In this document: one piece after another, positions 1 to 44,523 of the stretch | Position numbering within the stretch: the stretch's first letter is position 1 | How the letters are laid out: every line of letters starts with the position of its first letter | DNA from: Escherichia coli | GTDB taxonomy: Bacteria; Pseudomonadota; Gammaproteobacteria; Enterobacterales; Enterobacteriaceae | Reading direction: 5' to 3' (one strand) | DNA: 64,000 nt | Assembly (NCBI RefSeq): GCF_041886205.1 | Contig: NZ_CP169029.1 | Made by a program: the position numbers and the translations under genes | The notes under the pieces: model-generated | What the model saw: the letters and a program-made list of their open reading frames with translations, nothing else | What the model was told of the DNA's origin: nothing | Databases searched by the model: none

Positions 1-3000
1 TGCAGGCCGGGATGTGAGCAGTCAGGGTGCAGGTATCGCAGCGGAAGACAACATCACTGTCCGGGCCGGGCGCGACGTTAATCTGCTGGCGGAAGAGTCC
101 GTGACCGGCAGCAGTTCATACTCGAAAAAGAAAACGGTCATTGATGAAACCGTTCGCCAGCAGGGAACGGAAATCGCCAGCGGTGGTGACACCACCATTA
201 CTGCAGGACGGGATATCACCGCTGTTGCGTCATCCGTTACCGCAACCGGCAATATCAGTGTGAATGCCGGTCGTGATGTCGCCCTGACCACGGCGACAGA
301 AAGTGACTATCACTATCTGGAAACGAAGAAAAAAAGCGGAGGTTTTCTCAGTAAGAAAACCACCCACACCATCAGTGAGAACAGTGCCACCCGTGAAGCA
401 GGCGCCCTGCTGTCGGGGAACCGCGTGACCGTTAACGCCGGTGATAACCTGACAGTACAGGGTTCGGATGTGGTGGCTGACCGGGATGTGTCACTGGCGG
501 CGGGTAACCATGTTGATGTTCTTGCTGCCACCAATACAGATACGTCCTGGCGCTTTAAGGAAACGAAGAAATCCGGTCTGATGGGTACCGGCGGTATTGG
601 TTTCACCATTGGCAGCAGTAAGACAACGCACGACCGCCGCGAGGCCGGGACAACGCAGAGTCAGAGTGCCAGCACCATCGGCTCCACTGCCGGTAATGTC
701 AGTATTACCGCGGGCAAACAGGCTCATATCAGCGGTTCGGATGTGATTGCGAACCGGGATATCCGCATTACCGGTGACAGTGTGGTGGTTGACCCGGGGC
801 ATGACCGTCGTACTGTGGACGAAAAATTTGAGCAGAAGAAAAGCGGGCTGACGGTTGCCCTTTCCGGCACAGTGGGCAGTGCCATCAATAATGCGGTTAC
901 CAGTGCACAGGAGACGAAGGAGAGCAGTGACAGCCGTCTGAAAGCCCTGCAGACCACAAAGACAGCGCTGTCTGGTGTGCAGGCCGGACAGGCTGCGGCA
1001 ATGGCCACCGCAACCGGTGACCCGAATGCGACGGGAGTCAGCCTGTCGCTCACCACCCAGAAATCGAAATCACAACAACATTCTGAAAGTGACACAGTAT
1101 CCGGCAGTACGCTGAATGCCGGGAATAATCTGTCTGTTGTCGCAACCGGCAAAAACAGGGGCGATAACCGCGGAGATATTGTGATTGCAGGAAGCCAGCT
1201 TAAGGCCGGTGGTAACACAAGCCTGGATGCCGCGAATGATATTCTGTTGAGTGGCGCTGCAAATACACAAAAAACAACGGGCAGGAACAGCAGCAGTGGC
1301 GGTGGCGTGGGTGTCAGTATCGGTGCCGGTGGTAACGGTGCCGGTATCAGTGTCTTTGCCAGCGTTAATGCGGCAAAAGGCAGCGAGAAAGGTAACGGTA
1401 CTGAGTGGACTGAAACCACAACAGACAGCGGTAAAACCGTCACCATCAACAGTGGTCGGGATACGGTACTGAACGGTGCTCAGGTCAACGGCAACAGGAT
1501 TATCGCCGATGTGGGCCACGACCTGCTGATAAGCAGCCAGCAGGACACCAGTAAGTACGACAGTAAACAGACCAGCGTGGCTGCCGGCGGCAGTTTTACC
1601 TTTGGCTCCATGACCGGCTCAGGTTACATCGCTGCCTCCCGGGATAAGATGAAGAGCCGCTTTGATTCCGTTGCTGAACAAACCGGAATGTTTGCCGGTG
1701 ACGGCGGCTTCGACATTACAGTGGGCAGACATACCCAACTGGATGGTGCGGTGATTGCCTCCACTGCCACACCGGATAAAAACCACCTGGATACCGGAAC
1801 GCTGGGGTTCAGTGACCTTCACAACGAAGCGGATTATAAAGTCAGTCACAGTGGAATCAGTCTGAGCGGTGGTGGCAGCTTCGGGGATAAATTTCAGGGT
1901 AACATGCCGGGTGGCATGATATCCGCCGGAGGTCACAGCGGACATGCGGAAGGAACGACTCAGGCCGCAGTGGCAGAAGGCACTATCACCATCCGGGACA
2001 GGGACAATCAGAAGCAGAATCTGGCGAACCTGAGCCGTGACCCTGCGCACGCTAATGACAGTATCAGCCCGATATTTGACAAGGAGAAAGAGCAGAGGCG
2101 TCTGCAGACAGTGGGGCTTATCAGTGACATAGGCAGTCAGGTGGCGGATATTGCGCGTACACAGGGAGAACTGAATGCGTTGAAGGCCGCGAAGGAAGCA
2201 ACCGGCGAAACACTTCCTGCTAATGCAACAGAGAAACAACGTCAGGAATATCTTGCGAAACTGCGTGACACGCAGGCTTACAGGAATGAAATGGCGAAGT
2301 ATGGCACTGGTAGTGAAATTCAGCGGGGTATCCAGGTCGCGATGGCAGCGCTTCAGGGCCTGGCGGGCGGCAATATGGCAGGCGCGCTGGCAGGTGCTTC
2401 AGCGCCGGAGCTGGCGAACATCATCGGTCATCACGCGGGTATTGATGACAATACAGCTGCAAAAGCCATTGCCCATGCCATTCTCGGTGGTGTGACAGCA
2501 GCCCTTCAGGGCAACAGTGCGGCAGCAGGCGCAATTGGCGCGGGTACTGGCGAAGTGATCGCGTCAGCCATTGCGAAAAGCCTCTACCCGGACGTAGATC
2601 CGTCGAAACTGACAGAAGAGCAGAAGCAAACTGTAAGCACGCTGGCAACGCTGTCAGCGGGTATGGCCGGCGGTATTGCCAGTGGCGATGTGGCTGGCGC
2701 GGCTGCTGGGGCTGGTGCCGGGAAGAACGTTGTTGAGAATAATTTACTTGGCGGTAGTGAAGATGCTCAGGCTGCGTGGATACGCCAGCATGGTATCGAC
2801 ATGGCGACATGTGCAGAAAACCCTTCCGGTGCCGCCTGCCAGAAAGCAATGAATGAGAGGGATGCTGTAGGGCTGGCTCTGGCAACAGGTACAGTGGCAC
2901 TACTCCCCGGTAGTGCTCAGGCTATGTGGGGACTGGGAGCAAGTGCGAATGCTGGTATCAGTTATCTGGCTGATGGTACTGTAGATCCGGCAAACGCAGC

Positions 3001-3406
3001 CATTGCAGGCTGGGTGAATGTGTTCAGCATGGGTAATGGCCTGGCGGGGACTGTGGGCTGGAATGCGGCAGGTGGTGCGCTGGGTAACTGGATCGACAAC
3101 AAAGATCCTCTGTCTGGTGCAATTTCAAATGGTATCGGTTCTGCTGCCGGGTATGGTATCGGTAAAGGTGTTACTTGGGGGACAGATAAGATTACGAATG
3201 CTGTAGGAAAATGGGTGACAAATGGCTGGGATCCTAAGTACGATCCAACATGGATAAAATATGCTGAAGTAAATCGTAACGATATCATTCGAGAAGGCAT
3301 GAAACCGAGCAATGTTCCTGGAACTGCTGGAGATATTGGCGGTTCTATAGGATCTGAGCTAGGTGGAAAAGTAACAGATAAAGTATCTGAGGAACTCAAG
3401 AAATGA
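1..3406 (+). CDS. cdiA: CdiA contact-dependent inhibition exoprotein, C-terminal part (5' partial, gene continues upstream of window)
   Basis: Frame open from window start; repeated AGRD/AGND hemagglutinin-type repeats; pretoxin region; VENN motif encoded at 2732-2743 followed by a ~220-aa glycine-rich C-terminal domain ending in a K-rich tail. Confidence 0.85.
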
Positions 3407-3660
3407 AATATTCTTCTCGAGTGGTAATAGGTAAGTTTATTATATGCAGTTCAATTCTCTTATTGTGTTTTATTGGCATGATCTTAGCGGCCATAATAAC
3501 TAAACTAACGTTTGTAGCGTTAGCATGGTTTCAAAGCGGGATTTTTGAAGTTTTGTGGAGCGATATTGTTTATGCTGCTCAGTTGGGTGGTCTGGGGGGG
3601 GGCATATTAGGTTTTTGTTGGGTTTTGTTATATCTTTTTAGGGCAAAGGGCTTTAGTTGA
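3403..3660 (+). CDS. cdiI: Putative CdiI immunity protein (85 aa, predicted membrane protein)
   Basis: Start overlaps cdiA stop (ATGA); small hydrophobic protein immediately after the toxin domain. Confidence 0.65.
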
Positions 3661-4564
3661 GAATAACTACCTCAGCTACGACGAGGCGCATGCTTTTGAC
3701 AGAGAAATGACGGCCTGTCGTAAAGCGGGTGGAGACTGTGGCGATATTCAGAATAAATATGCTGTATTAAGCGCAGAGAACCGACAGAAATTACACATTG
3801 ATGTGGCTGCAGATCCTCTTACGGCTCTGTCCGGGGAAGATAAATGGAATATTGAGGGCGGACTCAGCGCGGCGGGCCGACCTGGCTGGCTGTATGGTTC
3901 ACTGACTAATCAGGAGGTGAAGGATTACGTGACTGAAGGCAACAGCTACGACCTGAACTATCTGAACAGTAATACGTCGAAGGGTGACAGGGCTCTGGCT
4001 TTCTTCGGGGAACCGGAAAATTACTGGGGTACGGTTGCCGGAGCGGGTTCGTTGTTAACGTCATCAGCCACGCTGACTGAAAAATTTGTCAGTGCCGGGC
4101 TGAGCTATGGGGCTAATGGTGCGGTACAAATTGGTACGGGAAATATCGGTGATAAGTTCGATTATCTCAGTTTCATGATGTCAGGCTTGACTGGTGTAGG
4201 TACAGCCGGGAAAGGATATTACGCTAACCAGTTGTTGGGTGCTGGTAGTGCTTACATGAGCAGCCAGATTGAAGGCCAGGACAGTACCGCATCAGTAGTG
4301 GGTAGCATGGCTGGTACAGGCCTAGGATATAACGTTGGTGCTTCAATTACTAATAAGTTAGAAGCTCAATACATCAAAAATCAACTGGGAATGGACGCCA
4401 GTAAATATTCACTGCAATATTCGGAAAAGTCTATCGGATACGGTATGTATCAAGGCGGACAAATGAGTTCTATACCAGGAACATTTGGTGGATTTGTTGG
4501 TTCATTCGTATCAGAAGGTGCAAGCAGCGCAACGCAAAAAGAAGTTGATGGAGACAAAAAATGA
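3656..4564 (+). CDS. Orphan cdiA-CT module 1 (VENN remnant + glycine-rich toxin domain); internal ATG at 3707
   Basis: Frame begins with [11 protein letters not shown] directly after cdiI stop, with no upstream start; Gly-rich domain ending EVDGDKK like the main CT. Confidence 0.65.
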   Translation, partial: VENNYLSYDEAHAFDREMTACRKAGGDCGDIQNKYAVLSAENRQKLHIDVAADPLTALSGEDKWNIEGGLSAAGRPGWLYGSLTNQEVKDYVTEGNSYDLNYLNSNTSKGDRALAFFGEPENYWGTVAGAGSLLTSSATLTEKFVSAGLSYGANGAVQIGTGNIGDKFDYLSFMMSGLTGVGTAGKGYYANQLLGAGSAYMSSQIEGQDSTASVVGSMAGTGLGYNVGASITNKLEAQYIKNQLGMDASKYSLQYSEKSIGYGMYQGGQMSSIPGTFGGFVGSFVSEGASSATQKEVDGDKK

Positions 4565-4779
4565 AAAAATATCTACTACTTCTTATTAAGTTGTTACTTA
4601 TATCTATAGCTACTTGCTCTATTGGAATAGTGGTTAGTATCTGGCTTATAGCTCGGGAACCAATACCTTCTGAGGTGTATGTAAAATACGGAATAATTGG
4701 CGCAGTAGTTGGCTTATGGGGAGGTGCTGGGATTTGGTTACAACTCTATCTACAAATGCGAAGATACTATCGTAAATAG
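4561..4779 (+). CDS. Orphan cdiI 1 (72 aa membrane protein)
   Basis: ATGA overlap with preceding toxin module; strongly hydrophobic. Confidence 0.55.
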   Translation: MKKYLLLLIKLLLISIATCSIGIVVSIWLIAREPIPSEVYVKYGIIGAVVGLWGGAGIWLQLYLQMRRYYRK

Positions 4780-5429
4780 TTGTTGTTGAGAATAACTCAC
4801 TGGCGCATGTACTGGCAGCAGCGGAAGCGAACAAAGCAGGGACTGCAGAGAAATGGCAGGAAGAGCAGCAGGCTGCGATTAGAGAGGCGTGCAGTGGTGG
4901 TACGCCGGTTTCGTGTGAAACAGCAGTCGCAGCGATGGGAAGTGCAATGGTATGGCCGCTATTGCCAGGGGCGGCAGCCACTACAAGTCTGATAGGTGCA
5001 GGAGCGAATGCCGGCATCGGGTTACTGATTAACGGTGAAGTGAATCCAAATGATGTCATTCTTGGTTACTGGACGGGAGTCTTTACAGCAGGAACTAGGC
5101 TGTGGGGGACGATGGGTGTGAATGCGGCCAGCGGAGCCACATCCAGCTATCTAAAAGGTGATGATCCGCTGAAAGGTGGGGCAATGGGGGGAATGTCGTC
5201 AGGATTAGGATATGGTGCTGGCAAAGTTCTTCAGGGGCAACTCGATAAGTTCATTAATCCAAACTGGAAGAATTGGGAGTGGGTTGATGTTGGTATGGGC
5301 ATATCGAAGCCAATGCCATTAGATCCACTGCCTGGGGTTATCGGCAATATGGGAGGTTCTGCGTCTACAGAATACATCAACGATCGAATAGGAAAATCTT
5401 TGAGTGATAAATCAGGAGATAAGAAATGA
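4779..5429 (+). CDS. Orphan cdiA-CT module 2 (VVVENN + glycine-rich toxin domain); first ATG at 4935
   Basis: In-frame VENN codons at 4785-4796 with open frame through 5429; no start codon before 4935. Confidence 0.6.
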   Translation, partial: VVVENNSLAHVLAAAEANKAGTAEKWQEEQQAAIREACSGGTPVSCETAVAAMGSAMVWPLLPGAAATTSLIGAGANAGIGLLINGEVNPNDVILGYWTGVFTAGTRLWGTMGVNAASGATSSYLKGDDPLKGGAMGGMSSGLGYGAGKVLQGQLDKFINPNWKNWEWVDVGMGISKPMPLDPLPGVIGNMGGSASTEYINDRIGKSLSDKSGDKK

Positions 5430-5680
5430 GTTCTTCTGACCGCAAAAAGATCCTGATCCTTTTAATATGCATGGTGACTGGTAGTGCTGTTGGTGTTTTT
5501 ATAACCATACTATCTATGTCTTTATTAATAGATATATATCTATATATCGCAGAAGGTATAAGGTTAGACATGCATACATATAATCTTGAAAAACTTTTTA
5601 AAGTAAGTTCATTCTGTGGTTGTATAGGCGGCGGTGGCTGTTGGTTACTCTATTATCGAAATTATAGAAAAAATAAATAA
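5426..5680 (+). CDS. Orphan cdiI 2 (84 aa membrane protein)
   Basis: Overlapping start; hydrophobic segments. Confidence 0.55.
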   Translation: MSSSDRKKILILLICMVTGSAVGVFITILSMSLLIDIYLYIAEGIRLDMHTYNLEKLFKVSSFCGCIGGGGCWLLYYRNYRKNK

Positions 5681-5682
5681 TA

Positions 5683-5820
5683 GTTGAGAATAACTACCTC
5701 AGCTACGACGAGGCGCATGCTTTTGACAGAGAAATGACGGCCTGTCGTAAAGCGGGTGGAGACTGTGGCGATATTCAGAATAAATATGCTGTATTAAGCG
5801 CAGAGAACCGACAGAAATAG
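5683..5820 (+). pseudogene. Duplicated stub of orphan module 1 (VENN-proximal ~135 bp) ending in TAG
   Basis: 5684-5817 is a near-exact copy of 3658-3791, then TAG at 5818-5820, in the same frame as the following module. Confidence 0.6.
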
Positions 5821-7173
5821 GATATTGCCGGGCTCAGCCGGGACCCGGAAAACGCCAACGGCAGCATTGCACCGATATTTGACAGGGAGAAAGAGCAGAA
5901 GCGTCTTCAGGAAGCGCAGGTTATCAGCCAGATTAGCGGTCAGATGAGTAACATCGTCATGACGTATGGCGAAACTGAAGCGATGAAAGCAGCCAGGAAA
6001 GAGCATCCTGGCATGAGCGATGCACAGTTGCGGGAGACTCCGGAATACAGAGAGGTCATGAAAGGCTACGGTACGGGCAGTACGCCGCAGATGGTGGTAC
6101 AGGCCATCACAGGCGTGCTGGGCGGACTGAATGCAGGGAATCCGGGGCAGGTACTGGCTGGCGGTCTGAATCCGGCAGTGGCACAGCTTATAAAACAGGC
6201 CACCGGCGATAACCGGGAAGCAAACCTGATGGCTCACGCAGTCTGGGGAGCGCTTGCCGCACAACTGGGCGGAAACAATGCGGCTTCCGGTGCTGCAGGG
6301 GCATTCAGCGGTGAACTTGCAGCCCGGTATATCATTGATAACTACTACGGTGGTCGTACCGATAACCTGAGTGAACAGGAACGTCAGCAAATCAGCATGC
6401 TGGCCACCATTGCCTCAGGTATTGCGGGCGGGCTTGTCGGCAACAGTACAAGTGCTGCCGGTACGGGGGCACAGGCAGGCAGGAACTCGGTTGAGAATAA
6501 TGCGCTGAGTCTGGTTGCCAGAGGCTGTGCGGTCGCAGCACCTTGCAGGACTAAAGTTGCAGAGCAGTTGCTGGAAATCGGGGCGAAAGCGGGCATGGCC
6601 GGGCTTGCCGGGGCGGCAGTCAAGGATATGGCCGACAGGATGACCTCCGATGAACTGGAGCATCTGATTACCCTGCAAATGATGGGTAATGATGAGATCA
6701 CTACTAAGTATCTCAGTTCGTTGCATGATAAGTACGGTTCCGGGGCTGCCTCGAATCCGAATATCGGTAAAGATCTGACCGATGCGGAAAAAGTAGAACT
6801 GGGCGGTTCCGGCTCAGGAACCGGTACACCACCACCATCGGAAAATGATCCTAAGCAGCAAAATGAAAAACCTGTAGATAAGCTTAATCAGAAGCAAGAA
6901 AGTGCGATTAAGAAGATCGATAACACTATAAAAAATGCTCTGAAAGATCATGATATTATTGGAACTCTCAAGGATATGGATGGTAAGCCAGTTCCTAAAG
7001 AGAATGGAGGATATTGGGATCATATGCAGGAAATGCAAAATACGCTCAGAGGATTAAGAAATCATGCGGATACGTTGAAAAACGTCAACAATCCTGAAGC
7101 TCAGGCTGCGTATGGCAGAGCAACAGATGCTATTAATAAAATAGAATCAGCCTTGAAAGGATATGGAATATGA
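5821..7173 (+). CDS. Orphan cdiA pretoxin-VENN-CT module 3; toxin domain ends with GYGI
   Basis: ~220 codons homologous to the cdiA pretoxin region ([22 protein letters not shown]...), VENN at 6490-6501, C-terminal tetrapeptide GYGI at 7159-7170; first ATG at 5944. Confidence 0.7.
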
Positions 7174-7556
7174 TTACCTTACGTAAATTGATTGGAAACA
7201 TCAATATGACAAAAGAGCCTGAGCAACAATCACAGCTTGAACTCTGGTTCGAACGTATCATAGATGTGCCTCTTGAAAAGTTAACAGTGGAAGATCTTTG
7301 CCGCGCTATCCGACAAAATTTATGTATTGATCAGTTGATGCCAAGAGTGTTGGAAGTTCTAACTAAAGAGCCGTTAGCGGGTGAATATTACGATGGTGAA
7401 CTAATTGCAGCTTTATCAACGATAAAAGGAGAAGATCTAAAAGATCAGAAAAGTACCTTTACCCAAATAAGGCAACTTATAAACCAGCTAGAACCGTCAG
7501 ATATTAACGATGATTTAAGAAAAGATATATTAAAAATCAATCAGATAATTGTATAA
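7170..7556 (+). CDS. Orphan cdiI 3 (128 aa, soluble-type immunity protein)
   Basis: ATGA overlap with module 3 stop; non-hydrophobic protein. Confidence 0.55.
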
Positions 7557-7597: not shown

Positions 7598-9415
7598 GCA
7601 TGTTCAGCAGCTCGGGGGTGAAAGTCCCCTGTCCAGCCTGATGGTGGCGAAGGACTAGCGAAGCGCAAGGGCGTCGTCGTAAGGCGGGGTCTGAAGGAAG
7701 CGTGAAGCAAATCCATGACCTGACGAACAGAAATCCGATACGAGGCCTACCCGGTTGGCGGAGCAAGCAAAGAATTGCGAAGGCCATAACCATCAAGAAC
7801 CGGGGGGTAAATCGGACAGGTGTGTGGTGAAGGCGTCTGAACTTACCCCGGGAGGCCTGTCCGTCGTTCTGTATCTAGAACTTAGCGTACCGTAAGGGGC
7901 GCTGACCGGCGGACAGGAGTCAGCAGAGGGCATAGTAGGGCATGACACCCGAAGGCCCGAACGGTAATGAGTGACGAGTATCAACGGAGGTTCTGAACGG
8001 TCATGCAGCAGAAAACGCATCGCGCCCCTGAGGCCGGAGAACGGGGTGAAGCCCCGAACGCCGCCCTTCCGGGGGCTGAAACCGTGCAGGCACCGACGAA
8101 CAGAGAAAGTCCGTCGTCAACAGTGTGGCTGATGGAAGCCATTTGTGAACCAGTCAATCTCAGGCAAGCCCTGAAAAGAGTTAAAGCCAACAAAGGTGCA
8201 GCGGGAGTCGATGGTATGCGCGTAAGCGAACTGCCGGACTACCTGAGGCACCACTGGCCAGAGCTGAAAGCGCAACTACTGTCTGGCAGATACCGCCCAT
8301 CTCCTGTGAGAAGAGTGTCCATACCGAAGCCCGGCGGCGGCGAACGTCTGCTGGACATCCCGACGGTGGTGGATCGCTTCATCCAGCAGGCGATGATGCA
8401 GGTATTGCAGGGGCACTGTGGGATAGCTCGTTCAGCGATAACAGCTACGGGTTCCGTCCCGGTCGTTCGGCCCACCAGGCAGTGATACAGGCCCGGGAAC
8501 ATATCGGGGCCGGGTATCACTGGGTGGTCGACCTCGATCTGGAGAAGTTCTTCGACCGGGTAAATCACGATGTGCTGATGAGCCGGATAGAGAAACGAGT
8601 ATCGGATAAACGGGTGTTGTCACTTATCCGCAGGTTCATGAATGCAGGGGTGATGGACGCAGGTCTGGTAAGGCCGGTGACAGAAGGAACGCCGCAGGGC
8701 GGCCCACTGTCGCCGCTGCTATCGAACCTGCTGCTTGACGACCTCGACAAGGAACTGGAGAAACGTGGTCTGAAGTTCGTGCGGTACGCAGACGACTGTA
8801 ATGTCTACGTGAAAAGCGAACGGGCAGACAACCGGATCATGGCGGGGTTGACGCACTGGCTGAGCCATAAACTGAAGCTGAAGGTCAACGCGAAGAAGAG
8901 TGCTGTAGCACGCCCTGAAACGCGCAAGTTCCCTGGATACAGCTTCATAAGGGGGCGGAAGGTATGGTGCGTGGTATCGCCGGAGTCGATAAAACGGTTC
9001 AAAATGCGGATAAGAGCACTGACCGGACGCAACACAGGGAGAAGCCTTGAACAGCTAACCCGGTTGCTAAAACGATATCTGACGGGCTGGAAAAGTTACT
9101 ACGGGCTGAACCAGAGGCCATCGCTGATGCGAGAGCTGAACGGATGGATAAGGCGCAGTCGAGGCGTAAGCAAGGACCTTGCGGCGCAAACAGCAGGAAG
9201 CTGCCATAAAGAGTGGCGGATAAGCTGTAGTCCGGCACTGAATATAGCACTCCCCAATAATCTGTTCTCCAGACTGGGCCTGCCAGAAGTATAGGCAGGC
9301 GACGATCAACATAACCGAACCGCCGTATACGGCCCCATACGTACGGTGGTGTGGGAGGAAGCTGATCGTGAGATCAGCTCCTATCCCGATTTAACCGTCA
9401 GTCTCCCCCAAAATG
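7598..9415 (+). mobile_element. Group II intron (boundaries approximate)
   Basis: GUGUG-type 5' start near 7598, structured GC-rich RNA domains, internal RT/maturase ORF, domain V-like hairpin near 9320-9360. Confidence 0.65.
8003..9294 (+). pseudogene. Group II intron reverse transcriptase/maturase, frameshifted near 8420-8430
   Basis: RT motifs (SYGFRPGRSAHQA, YADD) split between ORF 8003-8485 and ORF 8482-9294; the correct frame switches between ...QVLQ and LWDSSFSDNSYGF. Confidence 0.75.
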
Positions 9416-9956: not shown

Positions 9957-11444
9957 TCACCCGGAGAAGGTAAATCCCTCAAGAGGCAGCAACTCTGCCA
10001 GTCGCTCCTCCGGCCACTCCGGCAGACGCATCAGGACGTCTGTCAGCCAGGCATGCGGCTCCAGACCGTTGCGTTTCGCGGTTTCCAGCAAGCTCATTAT
10101 TTGCGCGGCGCGTTCTCCTGCCATCTGCGAACCGGCGAACAGCCACGATTTTCTGCCCAGGACCACGTTTTTGATGGCCCGTTCACACACATTATTATCC
10201 AGCGGCACCGCACCATCTTCCAGGAAGCGGCTTAGTTCCACGCGATGAGACAGCGCATAGACAATGGCTTTGTGTAATGCCCTTCCCGGAGAACATTGCG
10301 GTTCCTGCTCTTCAAGCCATGACCACAGATCTTCCAGTATCGGACGGGCATAACGCTGTCGCCACTGGCGGATTTTTTCCACGGGGCGGCTACTGATCTT
10401 CTTCTCAAGACGGTACAACCCCGCGATTTTCTTCACGGCGATGGCAGCCCGTGGATCTTTACTGATTTTATACAGGTCGGCGAAGCCCCTGCGGGCATGG
10501 GACCAGCATCCGGCCAGCGTGATCTCCGGCACTTTGTTTGCCAGAGTCCGGTAAGCTTTATGTCCGTCGACAACCAGCGTCCCGCCCCAGCCCTGAAGCC
10601 AGTTTTCAGGATACTCATGGCTACGTCCGGTCCGGCAGTTGAAGCACACAACTGACGGTCCCGTCCTTTCTCCACTGACGTATGCCCACAGATAACCGGA
10701 GCAGGATTTACCGCCTTTCTTCGTGTTCAGGAGCTTCAGGGTAGTCTCATCTGCATGCACCACCGGACGGTTTATCAACTCGCGATGGAGTAACGCCGCC
10801 AGGGGAGATAATGCGGCACCCGCCGCGCCAACCATGTCAGCCATCGAACTGACGGGAAGCCCGACATCTGAACGGGCAAAGACCTGTTGCTGGCGATACA
10901 GAGGCAGGTGGTCACCGTATTTATTGATGATCACCTGTGCGATGACTGATGGCTCAACGGCACTTTTCGGGAGGATATGTGCCGGCATTTCACCGCTGAA
11001 CACCTTCTGGCAACAGGGACAACTGTATTGCGGACGGACATAACAGTTCACCACGAAGTGAGCGGGAATATACTCCAGCTTTTCACTCACCGCATCACGG
11101 ATATAGTGCAGCGGCTCGTCACATTCAGGGCAATGGTCAGTGTCCGGCTGGATAATTTTTTCCACCCGTGGAAGATGAGCCGGTAAGGATTTGCGTATCG
11201 GGCGTGAACGGGACGCTTTTTCGTCTTCTTCAGGGGATTGCGGGAGCAGTTTATCCAGATGTGCGGTAAGCGCGGCGATATCGACATCAACATCCTCTTC
11301 GAACAGGGAGCGTTGCATACCAGCCAGCGTTTCACATTTTTTACCGAAGCGCTGTTGACGAACCAGTTTCAGCATTTCTTCCAGAAGCTGGATGCGCCGG
11401 CTTTTCTCCAGTAATTCCCGCTCTTTTTCGGCATTCTCCGACAT
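9957..11444 (-). CDS. tnpC: IS66-family transposase TnpC
   Basis: 495 aa; motifs [17 protein letters not shown], zinc-finger cysteines. Confidence 0.85.
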   Translation of the reverse strand: MSENAEKERELLEKSRRIQLLEEMLKLVRQQRFGKKCETLAGMQRSLFEEDVDVDIAALTAHLDKLLPQSPEEDEKASRSRPIRKSLPAHLPRVEKIIQPDTDHCPECDEPLHYIRDAVSEKLEYIPAHFVVNCYVRPQYSCPCCQKVFSGEMPAHILPKSAVEPSVIAQVIINKYGDHLPLYRQQQVFARSDVGLPVSSMADMVGAAGAALSPLAALLHRELINRPVVHADETTLKLLNTKKGGKSCSGYLWAYVSGERTGPSVVCFNCRTGRSHEYPENWLQGWGGTLVVDGHKAYRTLANKVPEITLAGCWSHARRGFADLYKISKDPRAAIAVKKIAGLYRLEKKISSRPVEKIRQWRQRYARPILEDLWSWLEEQEPQCSPGRALHKAIVYALSHRVELSRFLEDGAVPLDNNVCERAIKNVVLGRKSWLFAGSQMAGERAAQIMSLLETAKRNGLEPHAWLTDVLMRLPEWPEERLAELLPLEGFTFSG

Positions 11445-11564
11445 GACTTTTTATACCATGGCAAGTGCCATGGCACGCAGTTTTTCGATGTCATTCGTGG
11501 TGTTGAGAGCGGAGATGTCCATACAGGGGAGCATACCACTCCGGATACGGATATTAATTATTTT

Positions 11565-11957
11565 TCAATTAGTTAGCAGTGTATTTTGCGTGTTTTCAGG
11601 GCGCAGTTCAGGTTCATTCTGCCAGACCCATTTCGTCAGGTCATGTCCCTTAACCTGCTGCCAGTCAACACCGGCAATCAGCCAGTTAAACTCGTCGGGA
11701 GTGAGGTGCCAGGCAGCATCATTTGCACATGGCCAGCGGAAGCTGCCTTTGTGCAGACGGCGGGTACACAACCACACCCCGTGTTTATCCCACCGGAGAA
11801 CTTTGATACGCGAACGGGCTTTGTTAACAAAGACGAAGGCGGCTCCCCCATGCCATATCGACCGGAGTTCATCCTGTATATACTGCGTCAGTGCGTCGAT
11901 GCCCCGGCGCATGTCAACAGGTTTAATTGCGATGAAGACATTATCAGGACTGAGCAT
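11565..11957 (-). CDS. tnpB: IS66-family Orf2 (TnpB)
   Basis: Aligns with TnpB of the second IS66 copy (VLWADSDGLCLF / VLRWDKHGVWLC); start chosen at the internal Met. Confidence 0.75.
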   Translation of the reverse strand: MLSPDNVFIAIKPVDMRRGIDALTQYIQDELRSIWHGGAAFVFVNKARSRIKVLRWDKHGVWLCTRRLHKGSFRWPCANDAAWHLTPDEFNWLIAGVDWQQVKGHDLTKWVWQNEPELRPENTQNTLLTN

Positions 11958-12273
11958 ATTTGAGCGCCCTGAAGACATCGGTAAGTTGTGACGGCTGACA
12001 GCACATCCGTACTCCACCGGGAAGGAGGAGCGTGACTGGCTCATTCGTGACGGGCTGTGGTACATCAGCATGCAGTGGTGGCGCAATATGAACGGGAAGA
12101 ACGGTCGGTTCATTTGCCCGGCGTTCAGCTTTTGCGACATCCTGCGGCCATTCGCGAAGTGATGTGAAGGGAATATCGTTGAGTTCACAGTATTGCTGAC
12201 GTGTAAGACCACTGGCGCGCCAGGCAGCACGTTGCTGCCTTTTCTGTTCAATGGTCCATCGGGGTTTTGACAT
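11944..12273 (-). CDS. tnpA: IS66-family Orf1 (TnpA)
   Basis: 109 aa, immediately upstream of and overlapping tnpB. Confidence 0.7.
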   Translation of the reverse strand: MSKPRWTIEQKRQQRAAWRASGLTRQQYCELNDIPFTSLREWPQDVAKAERRANEPTVLPVHIAPPLHADVPQPVTNEPVTLLLPGGVRMCCQPSQLTDVFRALKYAQS

Positions 12274-12276
12274 TGA

Positions 12277-13413
12277 TTATCTCCGGTAAGTTGGTGAATG
12301 AATGTCGGTAATGCTAACTGACTGAAAATCTCTGTGAAGATGACTTCCCCGTAACGACACCTTCTTTATCGCCTGCCGAATGACGCTGTTCAGCGATTCG
12401 ATGGCATTCGTCGTGTAGATGGCCTTGCGGATATCCGGTGGGTAACCGAAGAAGGTGTTGAGATTTTCCCAGTGTGTGCGCCAGCTCTTGCTGATTTGCG
12501 GGTATTTTTTATCCCAGACGCCTGCAAACTTATCCAACGCCATCAACGCAGCTTCCTCTGTCGGGGCCTGATATACCGCTTTCAGCCCGCTGGTGACGGC
12601 TTTGTAATCCTTCCACGACACGAATTTCAGGCTGTTGCGCACCATATGGATGATGCAGAGCTGAATATGCGTCTGCGGGTATACGCTATTTATCGCTTCC
12701 GGGAAGCCTTTCAGGCCGTCCACGCAGGCAATCAGGATGTCCTGAAGGCCACGATTTTTCAGCTCAGTCAGTACACCCAGCCAGAACTTTGCACCTTCAT
12801 TTTCTGCCAGCCACATACCCAGCAGCTCTTTCTGACCGTCGGTATTGATGCCCAGCGCGAGGAACACCGCTTTGTTAATGACACTCCCGCCGTGACGAAC
12901 CTTAACCACAATACAGTCAAGATAAACAATGGGATACAGTGCATCCAACGGTCGGTTTTGCCATTCAGAGACCTGTTCTTTAACCGCATCGGTCACTTTG
13001 GATATCAGCGTGGGCGAGACATCGGCGTCGTACATTTCTTTGAACGTGGCAACGATTTCCCGCGTAGTCATGCCTTTGGCATACAGGGACAAAATCTGGC
13101 TGTCCATCTGGGTGATGCGTGTCTGATGCTTCTTAATTAGTTGCGGTTCGAAGGTATTTTCACGGTCACGCGGCGTGTTAAGTTCGATCTCGCCATCATC
13201 GCACAATACCGTTTTTGACGAGTAGCCATTACGGGTATTAGAGCCTGATTTAGGAGCATTTTTCTCATGACCGAGATGGTCAGTCAGTTCTGCATTGAGC
13301 GCCGTTTCGACGGTAAGCTTTGTCAACATGCGTGAAAACTGGTTGAGGTCGGCTTCGGTTTTAAGGCCTTTGGCCAGTTCAGCCGCAAGAGCTTTAAGTT
13401 TCTTTTCGTCCAT
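12277..13413 (-). CDS. IS256-family transposase, C-terminus apparently replaced at the junction with IS66 element 1
   Basis: 378 aa with IS256-type transposase features (MULE/DDE region); C-terminal 27 residues look non-native. Confidence 0.65.
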   Translation of the reverse strand: MDEKKLKALAAELAKGLKTEADLNQFSRMLTKLTVETALNAELTDHLGHEKNAPKSGSNTRNGYSSKTVLCDDGEIELNTPRDRENTFEPQLIKKHQTRITQMDSQILSLYAKGMTTREIVATFKEMYDADVSPTLISKVTDAVKEQVSEWQNRPLDALYPIVYLDCIVVKVRHGGSVINKAVFLALGINTDGQKELLGMWLAENEGAKFWLGVLTELKNRGLQDILIACVDGLKGFPEAINSVYPQTHIQLCIIHMVRNSLKFVSWKDYKAVTSGLKAVYQAPTEEAALMALDKFAGVWDKKYPQISKSWRTHWENLNTFFGYPPDIRKAIYTTNAIESLNSVIRQAIKKVSLRGSHLHRDFQSVSITDIHSPTYRR

Positions 13414-13718
13414 CGTTTGCCTGTCTCCGTTGTTGGAGTGAACATATCAAAAACAGGCAATTACACAATTTTAATTACAGTCTCTTCGGTTATTAACGAA
13501 ACTCAACAATAGCGCCTGGTTGTGAAACCAGTTTAACCATTTGAAGCTTAAACTCATTTGAAAATGATCTGCGGGGTTTTGCAGATAATGTTTTCTGTTC
13601 CATAACAGGTGTCCACTAGTTTTGAAGGTGGGCACCTACGTTACCAATACTGGCTTAATGTGTATTAGCTCAGACCTGATCTGACAGTTACCGGTTATTT
13701 ATACAGGTATCTGTCAGA

Positions 13719-14804
13719 TTACATCTGGCTTAAATTTTTCTCGACCCAGATGCGTTTTCCATCAAGTAACGTTTCCATTGGCGTCCGCCCATTGCACATT
13801 TTTCCCTGATGGGTTCGCTCATTATTATAGTGAGCCAGCCATTCATCAAGATCCGACTGTAATGTATCAAGATCGCCGTACAGTTTTTTACGGAACGTTA
13901 CCTGATAAAATTCGTTCAGGATTGTTTTATGGAACCGCTCGCAGATGCCGTTGGTCTGCGGGGACATCGCCTTTGTTTTCGTGTGTTCTATATCGTTTAT
14001 TGCCAGATAAAGCTGATAATCATGCTGCTCTACTTTGCCACAGTACTCCGTGCCTCTGTCGGTCAGTATTCTCAGCATCGGCAGGCCCTGAGACGCATAA
14101 AACGGCAGTACACGATCATTCAGTAAGTCAGCTGCGGTAATCGGTGTTTTGGTGACGTAAAGCTTACAGTGAGCCACTTTCGAGTACGTATCAACGAACG
14201 TCTGCTGATAAATACGCCCGACACCTTTCAGGTTGCCTACATAGAACGTGTCCTGCGAACCCAGATATCCAGGATGAGCCGTTTCGATTTCGCCACAGGC
14301 CTCGTCATCACTGGCTTTACGCTCCAGTGCTGCGATCTGGCTGTCAGTTAGCTCAATGCCATCACGGGCTACTTTTTCTTCCAGTGCTTTCAGACGTTTT
14401 TTGAAATTCTCAAGGTTATGGCGTAACAAGACAGAACGGACACCACTGCCGGAGATAAAAACGCCCTGTTTACGCAGCTCGTTGCTGGTCCGGTGCTGAC
14501 CGTGTGCCGGGAAAGCGACGGCGTAATCAACAACAGCCTGTTCAGTTGCCTCATCGGTACGGTTCTTAAGGTTAGGAGCGCGGCGACTACGATTAATCAG
14601 CGCATCCACACCGCCTTCATCGACCAGTTCGCGGTAACGATAAAACGTATCACGCGAAACGCCCATGATTTTACAGACTTTTGATTCGTTGCTGAGTTCT
14701 TCCGCCAGATTGAGCAAACCGGCTTTGTGTTTGATAACGGGATTGGTAGTATGAAGCATGAGAGTTACCTCGTGTTTTGTATAAGGATTCGACACCCATA
14801 TCAA
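13719..14804 (-). CDS. Transposase, HTH + DDE (rve) integrase core, IS481-family-like
   Basis: 361-aa single ORF with N-terminal HTH and integrase-core motifs. Confidence 0.7.
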   Translation of the reverse strand: MIWVSNPYTKHEVTLMLHTTNPVIKHKAGLLNLAEELSNESKVCKIMGVSRDTFYRYRELVDEGGVDALINRSRRAPNLKNRTDEATEQAVVDYAVAFPAHGQHRTSNELRKQGVFISGSGVRSVLLRHNLENFKKRLKALEEKVARDGIELTDSQIAALERKASDDEACGEIETAHPGYLGSQDTFYVGNLKGVGRIYQQTFVDTYSKVAHCKLYVTKTPITAADLLNDRVLPFYASQGLPMLRILTDRGTEYCGKVEQHDYQLYLAINDIEHTKTKAMSPQTNGICERFHKTILNEFYQVTFRKKLYGDLDTLQSDLDEWLAHYNNERTHQGKMCNGRTPMETLLDGKRIWVEKNLSQM

Positions 14805-14936
14805 AACCGGTAACTCTCAACCTTTCAAGGCTCAGTGTTAGCGCCAATGATATAAGACAGTAATTCACCATTTGAATTGTCCGCTCCACCCAACATGTTG
14901 TTTCCTTGAGGTTCTCACACCAGAAAGGACATCAAC

Positions 14937-16906
<1,970 letters not shown>

Positions 16907-17226: not shown

Positions 17227-17287
17227 TTTTGTGCGTAACCGGCTCATTTAAACCGTCTGGTCTGTTTCCTCCGGCTCTACAAAAATA

Positions 17288-17965
17288 ATGTCCATCATTT
17301 TTAATGGACACTATCGTATGAAACACCGGACCTGGATCACTGAAGCTTTACGTCTTCACTTTGAAGAACATTTACCCCGGGTTGTGGCCGGGCGTCGCCT
17401 GGGTGTACCAAAATCAACAGTTTGTAGTATGTTCGTGCGCTTTCGGAGAGCTGGCCTTTCGTGGCCTTTGCCCGCAGGCATGTCGGAGCAGGAACTTGAT
17501 GCCTGCCTTTACGGACAATTTTCCACGGTACCAGTCGTACGTCCTGAAAGCACCGTTATATCCGAAGCCCCCGTGGTAAAAAAACGTCCCCGGCGGCCCA
17601 ACTTCCCTTATGAGTTTAAAATCGCCTTAGTGGAGCAGTCACTGCAGCCCGGAGCCTGTGTGGCGCAGATCGCCCGGGAAAACGGAATCAACGATAACCT
17701 GCTCTTCAACTGGCGCCATCAATACCGGAAAGGTGGCCTGCTGCCTTCCGGAAAAAATATGCCGGCACTGCTTCCCGTGACGTTAACGCCGGAGCCGGAT
17801 AATAAAATCCCGGCCCCCGCACAGGAACCAGAGCAGATAAATACACCGTCCGACAGTCTGTGTTGTGAGCTGGTTCTGCCGGCCGGAACTCTCAGGCTTA
17901 AAGGTAAACTGACGCCGGCGTTATTACAGACACTTATCCGCGAAATAAAAGGGAGCAGCCACTGA
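17288..17965 (+). CDS. tnpA: IS66-family Orf1 (TnpA-like); start uncertain
   Basis: HTH region; first gene after the left inverted repeat. Confidence 0.6.
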   Translation: MSIIFNGHYRMKHRTWITEALRLHFEEHLPRVVAGRRLGVPKSTVCSMFVRFRRAGLSWPLPAGMSEQELDACLYGQFSTVPVVRPESTVISEAPVVKKRPRRPNFPYEFKIALVEQSLQPGACVAQIARENGINDNLLFNWRHQYRKGGLLPSGKNMPALLPVTLTPEPDNKIPAPAQEPEQINTPSDSLCCELVLPAGTLRLKGKLTPALLQTLIREIKGSSH

Positions 17966-18312
17966 TGATATCTCTCCCTGCAGGTTCGCGTATCTGGCTG
18001 GTTGCAGGTATCACCGATATGCGAAATGGCTTTAACGGCCTGGCATCAAAAGTTCAGAACGTCCTGAAGGATGACCCGTTCTCCGGACACCTGTTCATCT
18101 TCCGCGGACGCCGGGGTGACCAGATAAAAGTGTTGTGGGCTGACAGTGACGGACTGTGCCTCTTCACCAAACGCCTGGAGCGGGGCCGCTTCGTCTGGCC
18201 AGTCACCCGTGACGGCAAGGTGCACCTTACTCCGGCTCAGTTATCCATGCTTCTTGAAGGTATCAACTGGAAGCACCCGAAACGAACGGAACGCGCTGGA
18301 ATCCGCATATAA
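17965..18312 (+). CDS. tnpB: IS66-family Orf2 (TnpB)
   Basis: 115 aa, typical TnpB sequence. Confidence 0.85.
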   Translation: MISLPAGSRIWLVAGITDMRNGFNGLASKVQNVLKDDPFSGHLFIFRGRRGDQIKVLWADSDGLCLFTKRLERGRFVWPVTRDGKVHLTPAQLSMLLEGINWKHPKRTERAGIRI

Positions 18313-18331
18313 CCCGTTGTAAAGTGAGGAT

Positions 18332-19903
18332 ATGGACACCTCACTTGCTCATGAGAACGCCCGCCTGCGGGCACTGTTGCAGACGCAACAGGACACCATC
18401 CGCCAGATGGCTGAATACAACCGCCTGCTCTCACAGCGGGTGGCGGCTTATGCTTCCGAAATCAACCGGCTGAAGGCGCTGGTTGCGAAACTGCAACGTA
18501 TGCAGTTCGGTAAAAGCTCAGAAAAACTTCGTGCAAAAACCGAACGGCAGATACAGGAAGCACAGGAGCGAATCAGCGCACTTCAGGAAGAAATGGCGGA
18601 AACGCTGGGTGAGCAATATGACCCGGTACTGCCATCCGCCCTGCGCCAGTCTTCAGCCCGTAAACCGTTACCGGCCTCACTTCCCCGTGAAACCCGGGTT
18701 ATCCGGCCGGAAGAGGAATGCTGTCCTGCCTGTGGTGGTGAACTCAGTTCTCTGGGATGTGATGTGTCAGAGCAACTGGAGCTTATCAGCAGCGCCTTTA
18801 AGGTTATCGAAACACAACGTCCGAAACAGGCCTGTTGCCGGTGCGACCATATCGTGCAGGCACCAGTACCTTCAAAACCCATTGCACGCAGTTATGCCGG
18901 AGCGGGGCTTCTGGCCCATGTTGTCACCGGGAAATATGCAGACCATCTGCCGTTATACCGCCAGTCAGAAATATACCGTCGTCAGGGAGTGGAGCTGAGC
19001 CGTGCCACACTGGGGCGCTGGACAGGTGCTGTTGCTGAACTGCTGGAGCCGCTGTATGACGTCCTGCGCCAGTATGTGCTGATGCCCGGTAAAGTCCATG
19101 CTGATGATATCCCCGTCCCGGTCCAGGAGCCGGGCAGCGGTAAAACCCGGACAGCCCGGCTGTGGGTCTACGTCCGTGATGACCGTAACGCCGGTTCACA
19201 GATGCCCCCGGCGGTCTGGTTCGCGTACAGTCCGGACCGGAAAGGTATCCATCCACAAAATCACCTGGCCGGTTACAGCGGTGTGCTTCAGGCCGATGCT
19301 TACGGTGGTTACCGGGCGTTATACGAATCCGGCAGAATAACGGAAGCCGCGTGTATGGCTCATGCCCGGAGAAAAATCCACGATGTGCATGCAAGAGCGT
19401 CCACCTACATCACCACGGAAGCCCTGCAGCGTATCGGTGAACTGTATGCCATCGAGGCAGAGGTCCGGGGCTGTTCAGCAGAACAGCGTCTGGCGGCAAG
19501 AAAAGCCAGAGCCGCGCCACTGATGCAGTCACTGTATGACTGGATACAGCAACAGATGAAAACACTGTCGCGTCACTCAGATACGGCAAAAGCGTTCGCA
19601 TACCTGCTGAAACAGTGGGATGCACTGAACGTGTACTGCAGTAATGGCTGGGTGGAAATCGACAACAACATCGCAGAGAACGCCTTACGGGGAGTGGCCG
19701 TAGGCCGGAAAAACTGGATGTTCGCGGGTTCCGACAGCGGTGGTGAACATGCGGCGGTGTTGTACTCGCTGATCGGCACATGCCGTCTGAACAATGTGGA
19801 GCCAGAAAAGTGGCTGCGTTACGTCATTGAACATATCCAGGACTGGCCGGCAAACCGGGTACGCGATCTGTTGCCCTGGAAAGTTGATCTGAGCTCTCAG
19901 TAA
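18332..19903 (+). CDS. tnpC: IS66-family transposase TnpC
   Basis: 523 aa; leucine-zipper N-terminus, zinc-finger cysteines, [20 protein letters not shown]. Confidence 0.9.
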
Positions 19904-19906
19904 ATA

Positions 19907-21382
19907 TCAATACGGTTCTGACGAGTCGCTTACTTTTGTGCTGTCGCCAAAATCACTAATCCCTCTCACAATAAGCGCTGGAACTCCCTGCTTTTCGCAG
20001 GCATCAAATACCCCATAGGCTTCCATTTCGGCAACACAGGCTTTGTCATGAAGCGACCTGAAACGTTCTAGTAAAGCAGGATCGCGGATAAGAAGCTCTC
20101 CTGATGCGATAGTGGCTGAAGAAACAATTATCCCAGCAGCTACGTCTCCAGCCTGCGAATTTTCAGGCATTTCGAGTCCTATAGCCTGTGCCCGTTCGCC
20201 AAGACGTGCGGATAGTGACGTTGTTGCAAGGTAAGTATTGAGGTTTTGTTTAGTTGGCATATGGAGACATAATATTTCAGGTCGAGGAGCAAACTTCCCA
20301 CCTTCTAATGCGGCTGCACTTTCATAATAAATGACACGCTCAGAAATAATGACTTCACCTAGCACCATTTTTTCTCTCAACCCCGCCGCAATCCCCATCA
20401 TCAAGACTTTTTGGGGTTTGAATTCCGACAACAACATGGTAGTAATAGCTGAAGCATTCACATTTCCAGCACTAGCGAAAGACGCCACTATGCCAGTTAC
20501 TGGGCCATCTGAGCGTTGTATGGATGTGGACCAGAAATGTATTCCATTTGATGTGAGCCGCGGAGATTCATCATCAGCTATGCCAAATACTTTCTTGGCT
20601 GCAGCAAGTTCAACTGGTAGAGCTGTCAAAATCAACACATTTGGAGTATGCAGCAACTGTTGTGCAGCCCATTCAGCTTTAAGCAATTCAACTGCGATTT
20701 CTGAAAGTCGTTCCAGTCCATAGTAAGGTTCCTGTAACGATAAAGTGTCGAGCTGATTTTTTACGGCTTCACCGGTGCAAGGGAACATAGACAGCGGCTC
20801 TGCATAAAAACGTGCATGTAGGCCTAAAGCACCTTTTCCGTCATCGCAAATTCCCCCAAGCTCCAAGTCAAACGGTAATATGGGGTGGTTGGCTTTACGC
20901 ATTTTACTCGCACGATCGGAAACGCCTTTTCCTCCACCTAATGCAATCATGGCTGTGGCAGCATCAACCTGCTCGCTTCCAATATTTCCTCCAGTAATGA
21001 GATCATCATCTAGATAGCTGACATCAGCAAATCTAGCTGCCTGAAGTTTACGAATAAGCATCCGATTCTCTTCAGACATTTTCTCCCGCATTGCAGAACG
21101 CGACGTGACGATCTTGAGTTGGTGGGCTGGCGTATAATTCTCCATTAAATCTACAGCTTCTTTTACTATCGTCCAGTCGAAGGTCAGGAGATCCCCATTT
21201 TCATTAACAGGTTCTCCTGCCAAATAGACAACTAGTCCCACATTTGCATCAAGGATGCTCTTCGTCAATGCTCGAACGAAACTATGTGCTCGATCAATAT
21301 AAAGTTTTTCTGTATTTTTGGATATACTTCCAGCGATCAGAACATACTCATTATTAGTATTTGTCATCACAATTCTTCCCAA
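19907..21382 (-). CDS. Two-domain protein: N-terminal Rossmann-like domain with GGGKG motif (possible ligand sensor) + C-terminal PNP/MTA-nucleosidase-family domain; 3' end interrupted by IS66 element 2
   Basis: C-terminal half has nucleosidase-like motifs (VAEMEAYGV, RGISDFGD); last 8 codons and stop are IS-encoded (VSDSSEPY*). Confidence 0.6.
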   Translation of the reverse strand: MGRIVMTNTNNEYVLIAGSISKNTEKLYIDRAHSFVRALTKSILDANVGLVVYLAGEPVNENGDLLTFDWTIVKEAVDLMENYTPAHQLKIVTSRSAMREKMSEENRMLIRKLQAARFADVSYLDDDLITGGNIGSEQVDAATAMIALGGGKGVSDRASKMRKANHPILPFDLELGGICDDGKGALGLHARFYAEPLSMFPCTGEAVKNQLDTLSLQEPYYGLERLSEIAVELLKAEWAAQQLLHTPNVLILTALPVELAAAKKVFGIADDESPRLTSNGIHFWSTSIQRSDGPVTGIVASFASAGNVNASAITTMLLSEFKPQKVLMMGIAAGLREKMVLGEVIISERVIYYESAAALEGGKFAPRPEILCLHMPTKQNLNTYLATTSLSARLGERAQAIGLEMPENSQAGDVAAGIIVSSATIASGELLIRDPALLERFRSLHDKACVAEMEAYGVFDACEKQGVPALIVRGISDFGDSTKVSDSSEPY

Positions 21383-21396
21383 AGGAGTATTACTTG

Positions 21397-22296: not shown

Positions 22297-22394
22297 CTTA
22301 GTTCCCGGTAGCGTATAAAAAATATCTCAATATAAAAAGTAGACGCAGAATAAAAACTGAACGTATAATAATGCTACGCTATAGGGCGGTAAGG

Positions 22395-22434
22395 TGCAAC
22401 CATCACCTCAGTCACTTCTGAGGTGATGGTTGCA
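22395..22434. promoter_or_regulatory. Perfect 17-bp inverted repeat (TGCAACCATCACCTCAG - 6 bp - CTGAGGTGATGGTTGCA) in the divergent intergenic region; candidate operator or 5'-leader hairpin
   Basis: Lies between a -10-like TATAAT (~22363) and the RBS/start at 22466. Confidence 0.5.
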
Positions 22435-22465
22435 GTTTTCATGAATGATCTTCGGAAGGATGTGA

Positions 22466-23410: not shown

Positions 23411-23895
23411 GTTACTCCTCAACTGAAACATCGACTTATACCACAACAGACGTTGAAGCAGTCATGCGACGCATCACAGCTGACTTAGTGATGATTGCCG
23501 CCAGTACCGGTGCGATAACTGAATCAAAAGCACGTGAGTATGCTCACGATATAGAACTCTTAGCAAAAAATGGATATCTGGATTACGTCGATGTGACCCT
23601 TATAAGCAATGGCGTTGAACAGAAAGCAACCCGGTTTCATGTGAATGAGTCCGGAGAATTGGCAAATGACAGACCTGGAGACGCTCGTTGGCCGAGAATT
23701 CAGGGGGCTTATCTGCGGATTGTTGTGAACAACCGGAGTACCTACGATCAGGCTGCGAGGCAAAAGCTTTCAGGTAAGATGAAAATATCGTGGTCGCCAT
23801 GTAGTGATGACATCAGTCATTCAGGTTTGACCCAAAGTGGTGGTCGTGAATATTCCAGCAATGGTTATGGTATGCAACGTAAGGATTACAATTAA
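23407..23895 (+). CDS. Small protein (162 aa), possibly HORMA-like (Cap7-type); assignment from position and size only
   Basis: Translationally coupled (ATGA overlap) between the nucleotidyltransferase and the AAA+ ATPase. Confidence 0.35.
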   Translation: MSYSSTETSTYTTTDVEAVMRRITADLVMIAASTGAITESKAREYAHDIELLAKNGYLDYVDVTLISNGVEQKATRFHVNESGELANDRPGDARWPRIQGAYLRIVVNNRSTYDQAARQKLSGKMKISWSPCSDDISHSGLTQSGGREYSSNGYGMQRKDYN

Positions 23896-24791: not shown

Positions 24792-24848
24792 GGCCCCATT
24801 TCTTAATCAACTGATATACTATAAAAATCAACTCCAATTCCGGTACAT

Positions 24849-44518: not shown

Positions 44519-44523
44519 GAATT

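Follow-up and report, generated by a model that had tools for sequence, protein, structure and literature searches.

The segment at positions 5821-7556 was, with high probability, an orphan cdiA-CT/cdiI cassette that holds an intact, near-exact copy of the toxin/immunity pair of uropathogenic Escherichia coli (UPEC) 536. It was found in the window, the 64,000-nucleotide stretch of E. coli contig NZ_CP169029.1 that was analysed as a whole. The window begins inside a cdiA gene, whose 3' end lies at 14-3406 and which runs off the left edge; cdiB and the cdiA 5' end, if present, would lie beyond that edge. Three cassettes follow this cdiA in the same orientation, at 3656, 4785 and 5821, and the third in the row is referred to as orphan 3. 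Its features are compiled in Table 1.

Table 1. Sequence features of orphan 3 and its immediate 5' flank, in window coordinates.
Feature	Position	Strand	Evidence
5' fragment of a different toxin cassette: VENN and 42 codons, then TAG (46-codon remnant)	5683-5820	+	Repeat search, translation, junction alignment
Pre-VENN (pre-toxin) cdiA fragment, 223 codons, without N-terminal secretion/filament part	5821-6489	+	blastp, blastn, Pfam PT-VENN
VENN motif (GTT GAG AAT AAT), start of the 536-type toxin cassette	6490-6501	+	536 DNA identity begins there
CdiA-CT N-terminal part (CT residues 1-127): cytoplasm-entry domain and Gly/Pro-rich linker	6490-6870 (boundary approximate)	+	Identical to 536 CdiA-CT
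C-terminal tRNA anticodon nuclease domain (CT residues 128-227; Ntox28 type)	6871-7170	+	Identity to 5J5V_B, 5J43_F, 8ZYC_B
Shine-Dalgarno-like AAGGA, 8 nt 5' of the cdiI start	7157-7161	+	Anti-SD duplex -5.8 kcal/mol
GYGI tail	7159-7170	+	Sequence; role from PMC7690452, PMC9086364, PMC11724271
cdiI, 128 aa, soluble	7170-7556	+	PDB 5J5V_C, Pfam CdiI_3

The toxin ORF (5944-7173, plus strand) comprised 409 aa from its first ATG. Its frame was open from 5821, immediately after a TAG at 5818-5820, and spanned 450 codons. The frame closed at 7159-7173 with GGA TAT GGA ATA TGA, which encodes G-Y-G-I directly followed by the stop codon, as the preliminary description had read it. Six-frame translation of the whole window gave 529 stop-to-stop segments of 50 aa or longer, of which only orphan toxin 3 ended in G-x-G-I. 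One further GYGI was encountered in any frame, at an internal position (3149).

From this tail, a CysK-dependent nuclease toxin had been predicted. All PDB chains were searched with the toxin, and from VENN (6490) to the tail 226 of 227 residues were identical to the UPEC 536 CdiA-CT tRNase (best chain 5J5V_B, E = 5.9e-147). Further matches were 5J43_F and 8ZYC_B ('tRNA nuclease CdiA', uropathogenic E. coli 536). The sole substitution was T128P, caused by ACT to CCT at 6871. The active-site residues listed in PMC9086364 (D155, W176, H178 and E181) were all kept, as were the CysK contact I157, the tail residues 224-227, the tRNA-contact residues N133, Q134, K135 and K142, and both cysteines of the entry domain, Cys13 and Cys19. 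Homology to a CysK-dependent CdiA-CT nuclease was therefore not confined to the tetrapeptide but covered the entire CT, and the predicted type was confirmed. The T128P variant itself is likely to depend on CysK, given its near-identity to the 536 protein. At the DNA level, identity to strain 536 was 99.6% from 6490 to 97 nt beyond cdiI. The five differences between 6490 and 7640 were a synonymous one at 6573, those underlying T128P (6871) and P22Q in the immunity protein (7234), and two intergenic ones.

Profile searches gave a less uniform picture. The Pfam PT-VENN pre-toxin domain was detected in the toxin ORF (E = 6e-17); the Ntox28 model (PF15605) scored 17.7 bits against a curated cut-off of 25, and no NCBIfam family matched the toxin, the immunity protein or the three neighbouring toxins. 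PGAP evidently follows different rules in naming such proteins. Since a CysK-independent Ntox28 toxin exists (PMC9086364), these scores could be taken to mean that GYGI is a chance ending of an unrelated protein or of a CysK-independent nuclease comparable to the Ruminococcus lactaris Ntox28 homologue. The probability of this is practically nil. As to homology, it was already refuted by the PDB-chain match, with the tail, I157 and the active site kept. A chance origin of the tetrapeptide was likewise rejected, as the whole domain matches a characterised toxin. The weak Pfam score must equally hold for the 536 reference protein, which differs by one residue, so that the low Ntox28 score is predicted to be a property of the 536-type subfamily and not of the orphan 3 copy.

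The 536 toxin has been characterised in detail. It is catalogued as E. coli CdiA-CT type 11, an Ntox28, non-specific tRNA anticodon nuclease associated with FtsH and strain 536 (PMC11630599). In crystal and cryo-EM structures, the GYGI tail is located inside the CysK active site (PMC7690452, PMC11724271), where it mimics the C-terminal tail of CysE in the cysteine synthase (CysK:CysE) complex (PMC5562914, PMC9086364). CysE is a metabolic enzyme of unrelated fold, and its homology to the toxin is limited to the tail. Binding to CysK is tight, with a Kd of about 11 nM, and tRNase activity occurs in the complex only (PMC5562914, PMC9086364, PMC7690452). Cryo-EM with tRNA placed I227 on the PLP cofactor by stacking and found no contact between CysK and the tRNA; CysK stabilises the toxin and shapes the catalytic site for cleavage of the anticodon loop, and stepwise deletion of the tail lowers toxicity (PMC11724271). 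Entry of the 536 and the Enterobacter cloacae toxins into the target cytoplasm requires FtsH in the target cells (PMC7690452). In the ternary complex with CysK, CdiI contacts W176, H178 and E181 (PMC9086364).

By analogy, a toxin of this type carried on a full-length CdiA would be cleaved off at VENN, as published for the 536 protein, from which orphan toxin 3 departs at a single residue. Its N-terminal entry domain, aided by FtsH, would take it across the inner membrane of the target cell. The GYGI tail would then dock into the active-site cleft of CysK in imitation of the CysE tail, and the complex would cut tRNA anticodon loops, so that translation would stop. In a ternary complex of CysK, toxin and CdiI, the immunity protein would lie over the active-site residues H178, E181 and W176 and thereby neutralise the toxin. 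A tblastn search of the window with E. coli CysK, using an approximate query sequence, gave no match. The cysK gene is expected elsewhere on the chromosome, so that this negative result has no bearing on the supply of CysK.

The entry domain of orphan toxin 3 was common to the CdiA-CT of E. cloacae ATCC 13047 (PDB 4NTQ), which matched ORF residues 184-307, corresponding to CT residues 2-125 (E = 2e-41). This fits the published two-domain plan of a common entry domain followed by a variable nuclease. The C-terminal domain of the E. cloacae protein is a 16S rRNase without CysK requirement (PMC9086364).

The 128-aa protein encoded downstream had been proposed as the soluble immunity protein, and this assignment held. 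It was identical to UPEC 536 CdiI in 127 of 128 residues (PDB 5J5V_C, E = 1.7e-78) and matched Pfam CdiI_3 (PF18616, E = 2e-28). It was hydrophilic throughout (GRAVY -0.25), with no hydrophobic segment. The single substitution, P22Q (CCG to CAG at 7234), could in principle affect binding to the toxin. The start codon overlaps the toxin stop at 7170 (ATGA). The anti-SD pairing ahead of this start (-5.8 kcal/mol) was comparable to that of the other three cdiI genes in the array, which amounted to -6.1 to -7.4 kcal/mol. In the E. coli genomes ZYB39 and GmM062, the gene is annotated as cdiI (WP_000631803.1).

The orphan status given to the toxin earlier was corroborated. Its frame is not fused to a full-length CdiA: it opens only after the TAG at 5818-5820 and holds 223 codons ahead of VENN, with no N-terminal CdiA part. 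PGAP labels the identical gene of ZYB39 'VENN motif pre-toxin domain-containing protein, missing N-terminus'. All 223 residues before VENN were identical to EC93 CdiA encoded on plasmid pCP127 (locus at about 91 kb; 97.8% DNA identity), and the classical EC93 toxin is encoded at this locus. Identity of the fragment to the window's own cdiA was about 43%, and a back-calculated estimate for 536 CdiA was also about 43%. Because the pre-VENN part matches EC93 CdiA and not that of 536 or of the window, orphan 3 appears to be the broken-off 3' end of a different, EC93-class cdiA carrying a 536-type toxin.

Both junctions of this mosaic were mapped. Identity to strain 536 began exactly at the first base of VENN (6490), and EC93-type identity extended to 6503. 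On the left, homology of the orphan 1 type reached to about 5818 and EC93-type homology started at about 5812, with a CAGAA microhomology. The fragment was presumably joined to an existing orphan array by illegitimate recombination. The odds are about even that it is a relic of a natural EC93-class CdiA with a 536 toxin; among 5,426 complete E. coli genomes, no such fusion was found as a full-length gene. EC93-type pre-toxin joined to 536-type toxin at VENN, with a microhomology joint to a remnant, is a clean natural example of the shuffling of cassettes between cdiA classes and their storage in arrays. This history is only a mildly new detail. The toxin/immunity pair and its kind of arrangement are already known biology; a textbook CDI toxin was re-identified rather than newly predicted. 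For annotation, '536-type CdiA-CT/CdiI orphan cassette' is the appropriate label for the ORF. Provided that cdiI is expressed, immunity of the strain to 536-type CDI is predicted.

The first 8 kb of the window contained five VENN motifs, at 2732 (in the cdiA 3' end), 3656, 4785, 5683 and 6490. The orphan cassettes at 3656 and 4785 begin right at VENN. The toxin domains at VENN 2732, 3656 and 4785 had been characterised as glycine-rich with membrane-type immunity proteins, and the composition agreed with this. They contained 15-17% Gly, compared with 9.7% in the orphan toxin 3 domain, and each carried GxxxGxxxG motifs. Their immunity ORFs of 85, 72 and 84 aa were strongly hydrophobic, with Kyte-Doolittle maxima of 2.5-2.8 in 19-residue windows. 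The three toxins fit the polymorphic CDI ionophore family, in which the glycine zipper is the only common element (PMC11630599). Between orphan 1 and the ionophore region of EC93, similarity was weak (30% over 116 aa).

The fifth VENN motif belonged to the short remnant directly 5' of orphan 3 and in the same frame. This remnant repeats the beginning of orphan 1 (3654-3800) with 97% identity. It is the trace of an old recombination event in the array, and the TAG was created at the junction with the orphan 3 fragment. The main toxin/immunity pair (2732-3660) shared 97.9% DNA identity with a stretch downstream of the second cdi locus on EC93 plasmid pCP127. Because the counterpart sits downstream of a cdi locus there, this cassette is the main one in one strain and apparently an orphan in another.

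Among 5,426 complete E. coli genomes, 209 carried the toxin/immunity DNA (6502-7556) at a minimum of 99% identity. Each of them had a single copy, which was nearly always chromosomal. In most of the 209, including 536 and UTI89, the module is the terminal part of a gene whose annotation is cdiA or another large CdiA-type protein. The combination of an EC93-type pre-toxin region with the 536 toxin was detected in one genome of the 5,426, the bovine strain ZYB39, where it was 100% identical and also an orphan. Positions 1-28307 of the window were colinear with ZYB39 at 99.98-100% identity, except for the position of ISCro1. In ZYB39, this IS66-family element is inserted at window position 5791-5798, a site where the window carries none; the window's copy, 98.5% identical, lies at 17234-19936 and represents the main structural difference in the region. 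Upstream, IS66 has replaced cdiB and roughly 1.85 kb at the 5' end of the ZYB39 cdiA, which is annotated as frameshifted. There, cdiA is fused to the 5' end of the IS66 tnpC. The ZYB39 cdi locus is therefore probably unable to secrete anything. A plasmid origin of the locus was considered and rejected, since a plasmid collection yielded only partial matches, to the cdiA part, and the cdi locus of ZYB39 is chromosomal.

Compared with the pair of strain 536 (PDB 5J5V, 5J43, 8ZYC/8ZYD), orphan 3 shares the VENN boundary, the entry domain, the catalytic residues, the GYGI tail and the ATGA junction. It differs in that it is separated from a full-length CdiA and lacks the TPS domain, the filament and the receptor-binding domain, and in carrying T128P and P22Q. 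The module of strain 536 ends a 9.7-kb cdiA adjoining cdiB; in orphan 3, the 223 codons ahead of VENN are EC93-type. The 536-type module also occurs as an orphan in ZYB39, GmM062 and EC11 and, by annotation, in 1303, JNU and Z142-6. The toxin/immunity DNA of these modules was 99.8-100% identical and followed by the same group II intron. GmM062 and EC11 carry it behind other full-length cdiA genes; the toxin is frameshifted in GmM062 and abuts IS66 in EC11. Among these orphan modules, the EC93-type pre-VENN fragment was found in ZYB39 only.

The closest precedent for the arrangement is cdiA-CTo1/cdiIo1 of EC93, an orphan tRNase cassette of the same family behind an ionophore-type cdiA/cdiI (Poole et al. 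2011, PMC3150448). As in orphan 3, its toxin has a VENN motif and no translation signals, and its cdiI has its own Shine-Dalgarno sequence (PMC3150448). Identity between the EC93 and window pairs was 75.7% for the toxin and 35.7% for the immunity protein. Unlike orphan 3, the EC93 cassette ends in GHGI and begins right at VENN, with no pre-toxin fragment. It is co-transcribed with cdiA. A protective CdiI is produced from it, and its toxin was undetected (PMC3150448). Neither the EC93 nor the 536 immunity protein binds the near-cognate toxin of the other pair (PMC3150448).

Signals for expression of the orphan 3 toxin were poor. Anti-SD pairing ahead of ATG 5944 and ATG 5959 was -2.4 and -2.2 kcal/mol, which corresponds to no Shine-Dalgarno sequence, and ranged from 0 to -2.9 kcal/mol for the ATGs inside the toxin. 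A consensus scan of 3300-7500 found no sigma-70-like promoter on the plus strand. Between 3300 and 7900, a promoter/terminator consensus scan returned fewer promoter-like sites than shuffled sequences, and a promoter of its own was thus unsupported. On this sequence, the toxin cannot be deployed from the orphan 3 locus as it stands, because it has no secretion/filament part, a stop codon just upstream, no ribosome-binding site and a position as the third cassette behind another cdiA. Judged from the loss of the cdiA 5' end and cdiB in ZYB39, the native promoter of the locus may be gone. If the same upstream loss applies here, the locus would be unable to deliver anything and its transcription would rely on read-through.

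Some translation from the in-frame ATG 5944 is conceivable. Together with the ATGA stop/start overlap, which is compatible with translational coupling, and with the reported stabilisation of the toxin/immunity complex by CysK in producer cells (PMC7690452), it could mean that the 409-aa ORF is expressed on its own and forms, with CdiI and CysK, a toxin-antitoxin or addiction module or a CysK-binding regulator. This is very unlikely. Neither ATG 5944 nor ATG 5959 is preceded by a Shine-Dalgarno sequence, the ATGA overlap was inherited unchanged from the full-length 536 gene, and the 182-residue stretch ahead of VENN is no more than a piece of cdiA. In addition, the homologous orphan toxin of EC93 was undetectable by immunoblot (PMC3150448). 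A more specific version, in which a low-level product from ATG 5944 in a CysK:toxin:CdiI complex serves as addiction module for the tRNA-Phe-linked island or as modulator of cysteine synthase and is not a silent spare, is highly improbable.

The present role of the cassette is most likely immunity only, exerted through cdiI. With its own Shine-Dalgarno sequence and start codon, cdiI would shield the cell from 536-type toxins delivered by its neighbours. Its expression is plausible from the Shine-Dalgarno sequence and the EC93 precedent. The main rival to this role is a genomic island in decay, of which the whole cdi region would be a leftover; neither the orphan toxin nor cdiI would then be expressed or selected, and the intact sequence would merely reflect recent acquisition. 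The surroundings lend this some weight, as the region is full of mobile elements (a group II intron from about 7589, IS66 at 9957-12273, and IS256 and IS481 fragments) and the plus strand ahead of the cassette has no promoter-like site. The main cdiA of ZYB39 has been cut short by IS66, carries a frameshift and has no cdiB, and the array there is interrupted by ISCro1. The five nucleotide differences from strain 536 over 1.15 kb, with two of the three coding ones nonsynonymous, are too few for a signal of purifying selection. Against pure decay, however, start codons and Shine-Dalgarno sequences are kept in all four cdiI genes, and both orphan 3 ORFs are unbroken. The upstream IS66 genes of ZYB39 are co-oriented with cdiA, so that read-through transcription is possible, and the orphan cdiI of EC93 is expressed and protective (PMC3150448). 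Pure decay was accordingly rated as unlikely, although with a substantial residual chance, and an immunity function remained the preferred reading.

A ready-to-swap spare toxin was not adopted as the main function of the cassette, given the short homology tracts. The window's cdiA and the pre-VENN part of orphan 3 shared about 74% identity over 114 nt, and the VENN stretch measured 12 nt. Because the longest exact match between cdiA and the orphan pre-toxin region is 14 nt, RecA-type toxin switching by homologous recombination between the two would be unlikely in this strain.

Downstream of cdiI, the group II intron begins after about 33 nt, with GTGTG at 7589, and extends to about 9395. Rfam models of D1-D4 matched at 7673-7957 and domain V/VI at 9318-9390, the latter with 33.6 bits at a cut-off of 40. 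Its reverse transcriptase/maturase was spread over two ORFs (8003-8485 and 8482-9294). GmM062, EC11 and ZYB39 carry this intron 3' of the same cdiI; in strain 536, the shared sequence ends 97 nt past cdiI and gives way to an IS66 fragment. A pile-up of insertion sequences occupies about 9957-16700. It comprises the IS66 genes tnpC/tnpB/tnpA on the minus strand (9957-12273), an IS256-like transposase ORF (12277-13413) and an IS481 transposase (13719-14804), followed by istA/istB of IS21 according to the ZYB39 annotation.

Mapping of the ZYB39 annotation placed a CBASS-type anti-phage operon at about 19850-25450, with an oligonucleotide cyclase, a small protein, an ATP-binding protein and a 3'-5' exonuclease. 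A WYL-domain protein and a 505-aa MTA/SAH-nucleosidase-like protein adjoin it. A tRNA-Phe gene (44524-44599, minus strand) adjoins a 441-aa ORF at 43064-44389, annotated as tyrosine integrase in ZYB39. The genomic island in which the cdi array lies has its edge at this tRNA-Phe/integrase pair (43064-44599). Beyond the edge, the core genes dsbD, cutA, dcuA, aspA, groESL, efp, ampC and frd are found in ZYB39. Rfam searches additionally identified an ALIL pseudoknot, a frameshift element of IS3-family transposases, at 34694-34810 and two adjacent copies of naRNA4, a REP-derived nucleoid-associated RNA, at 56432-56589.
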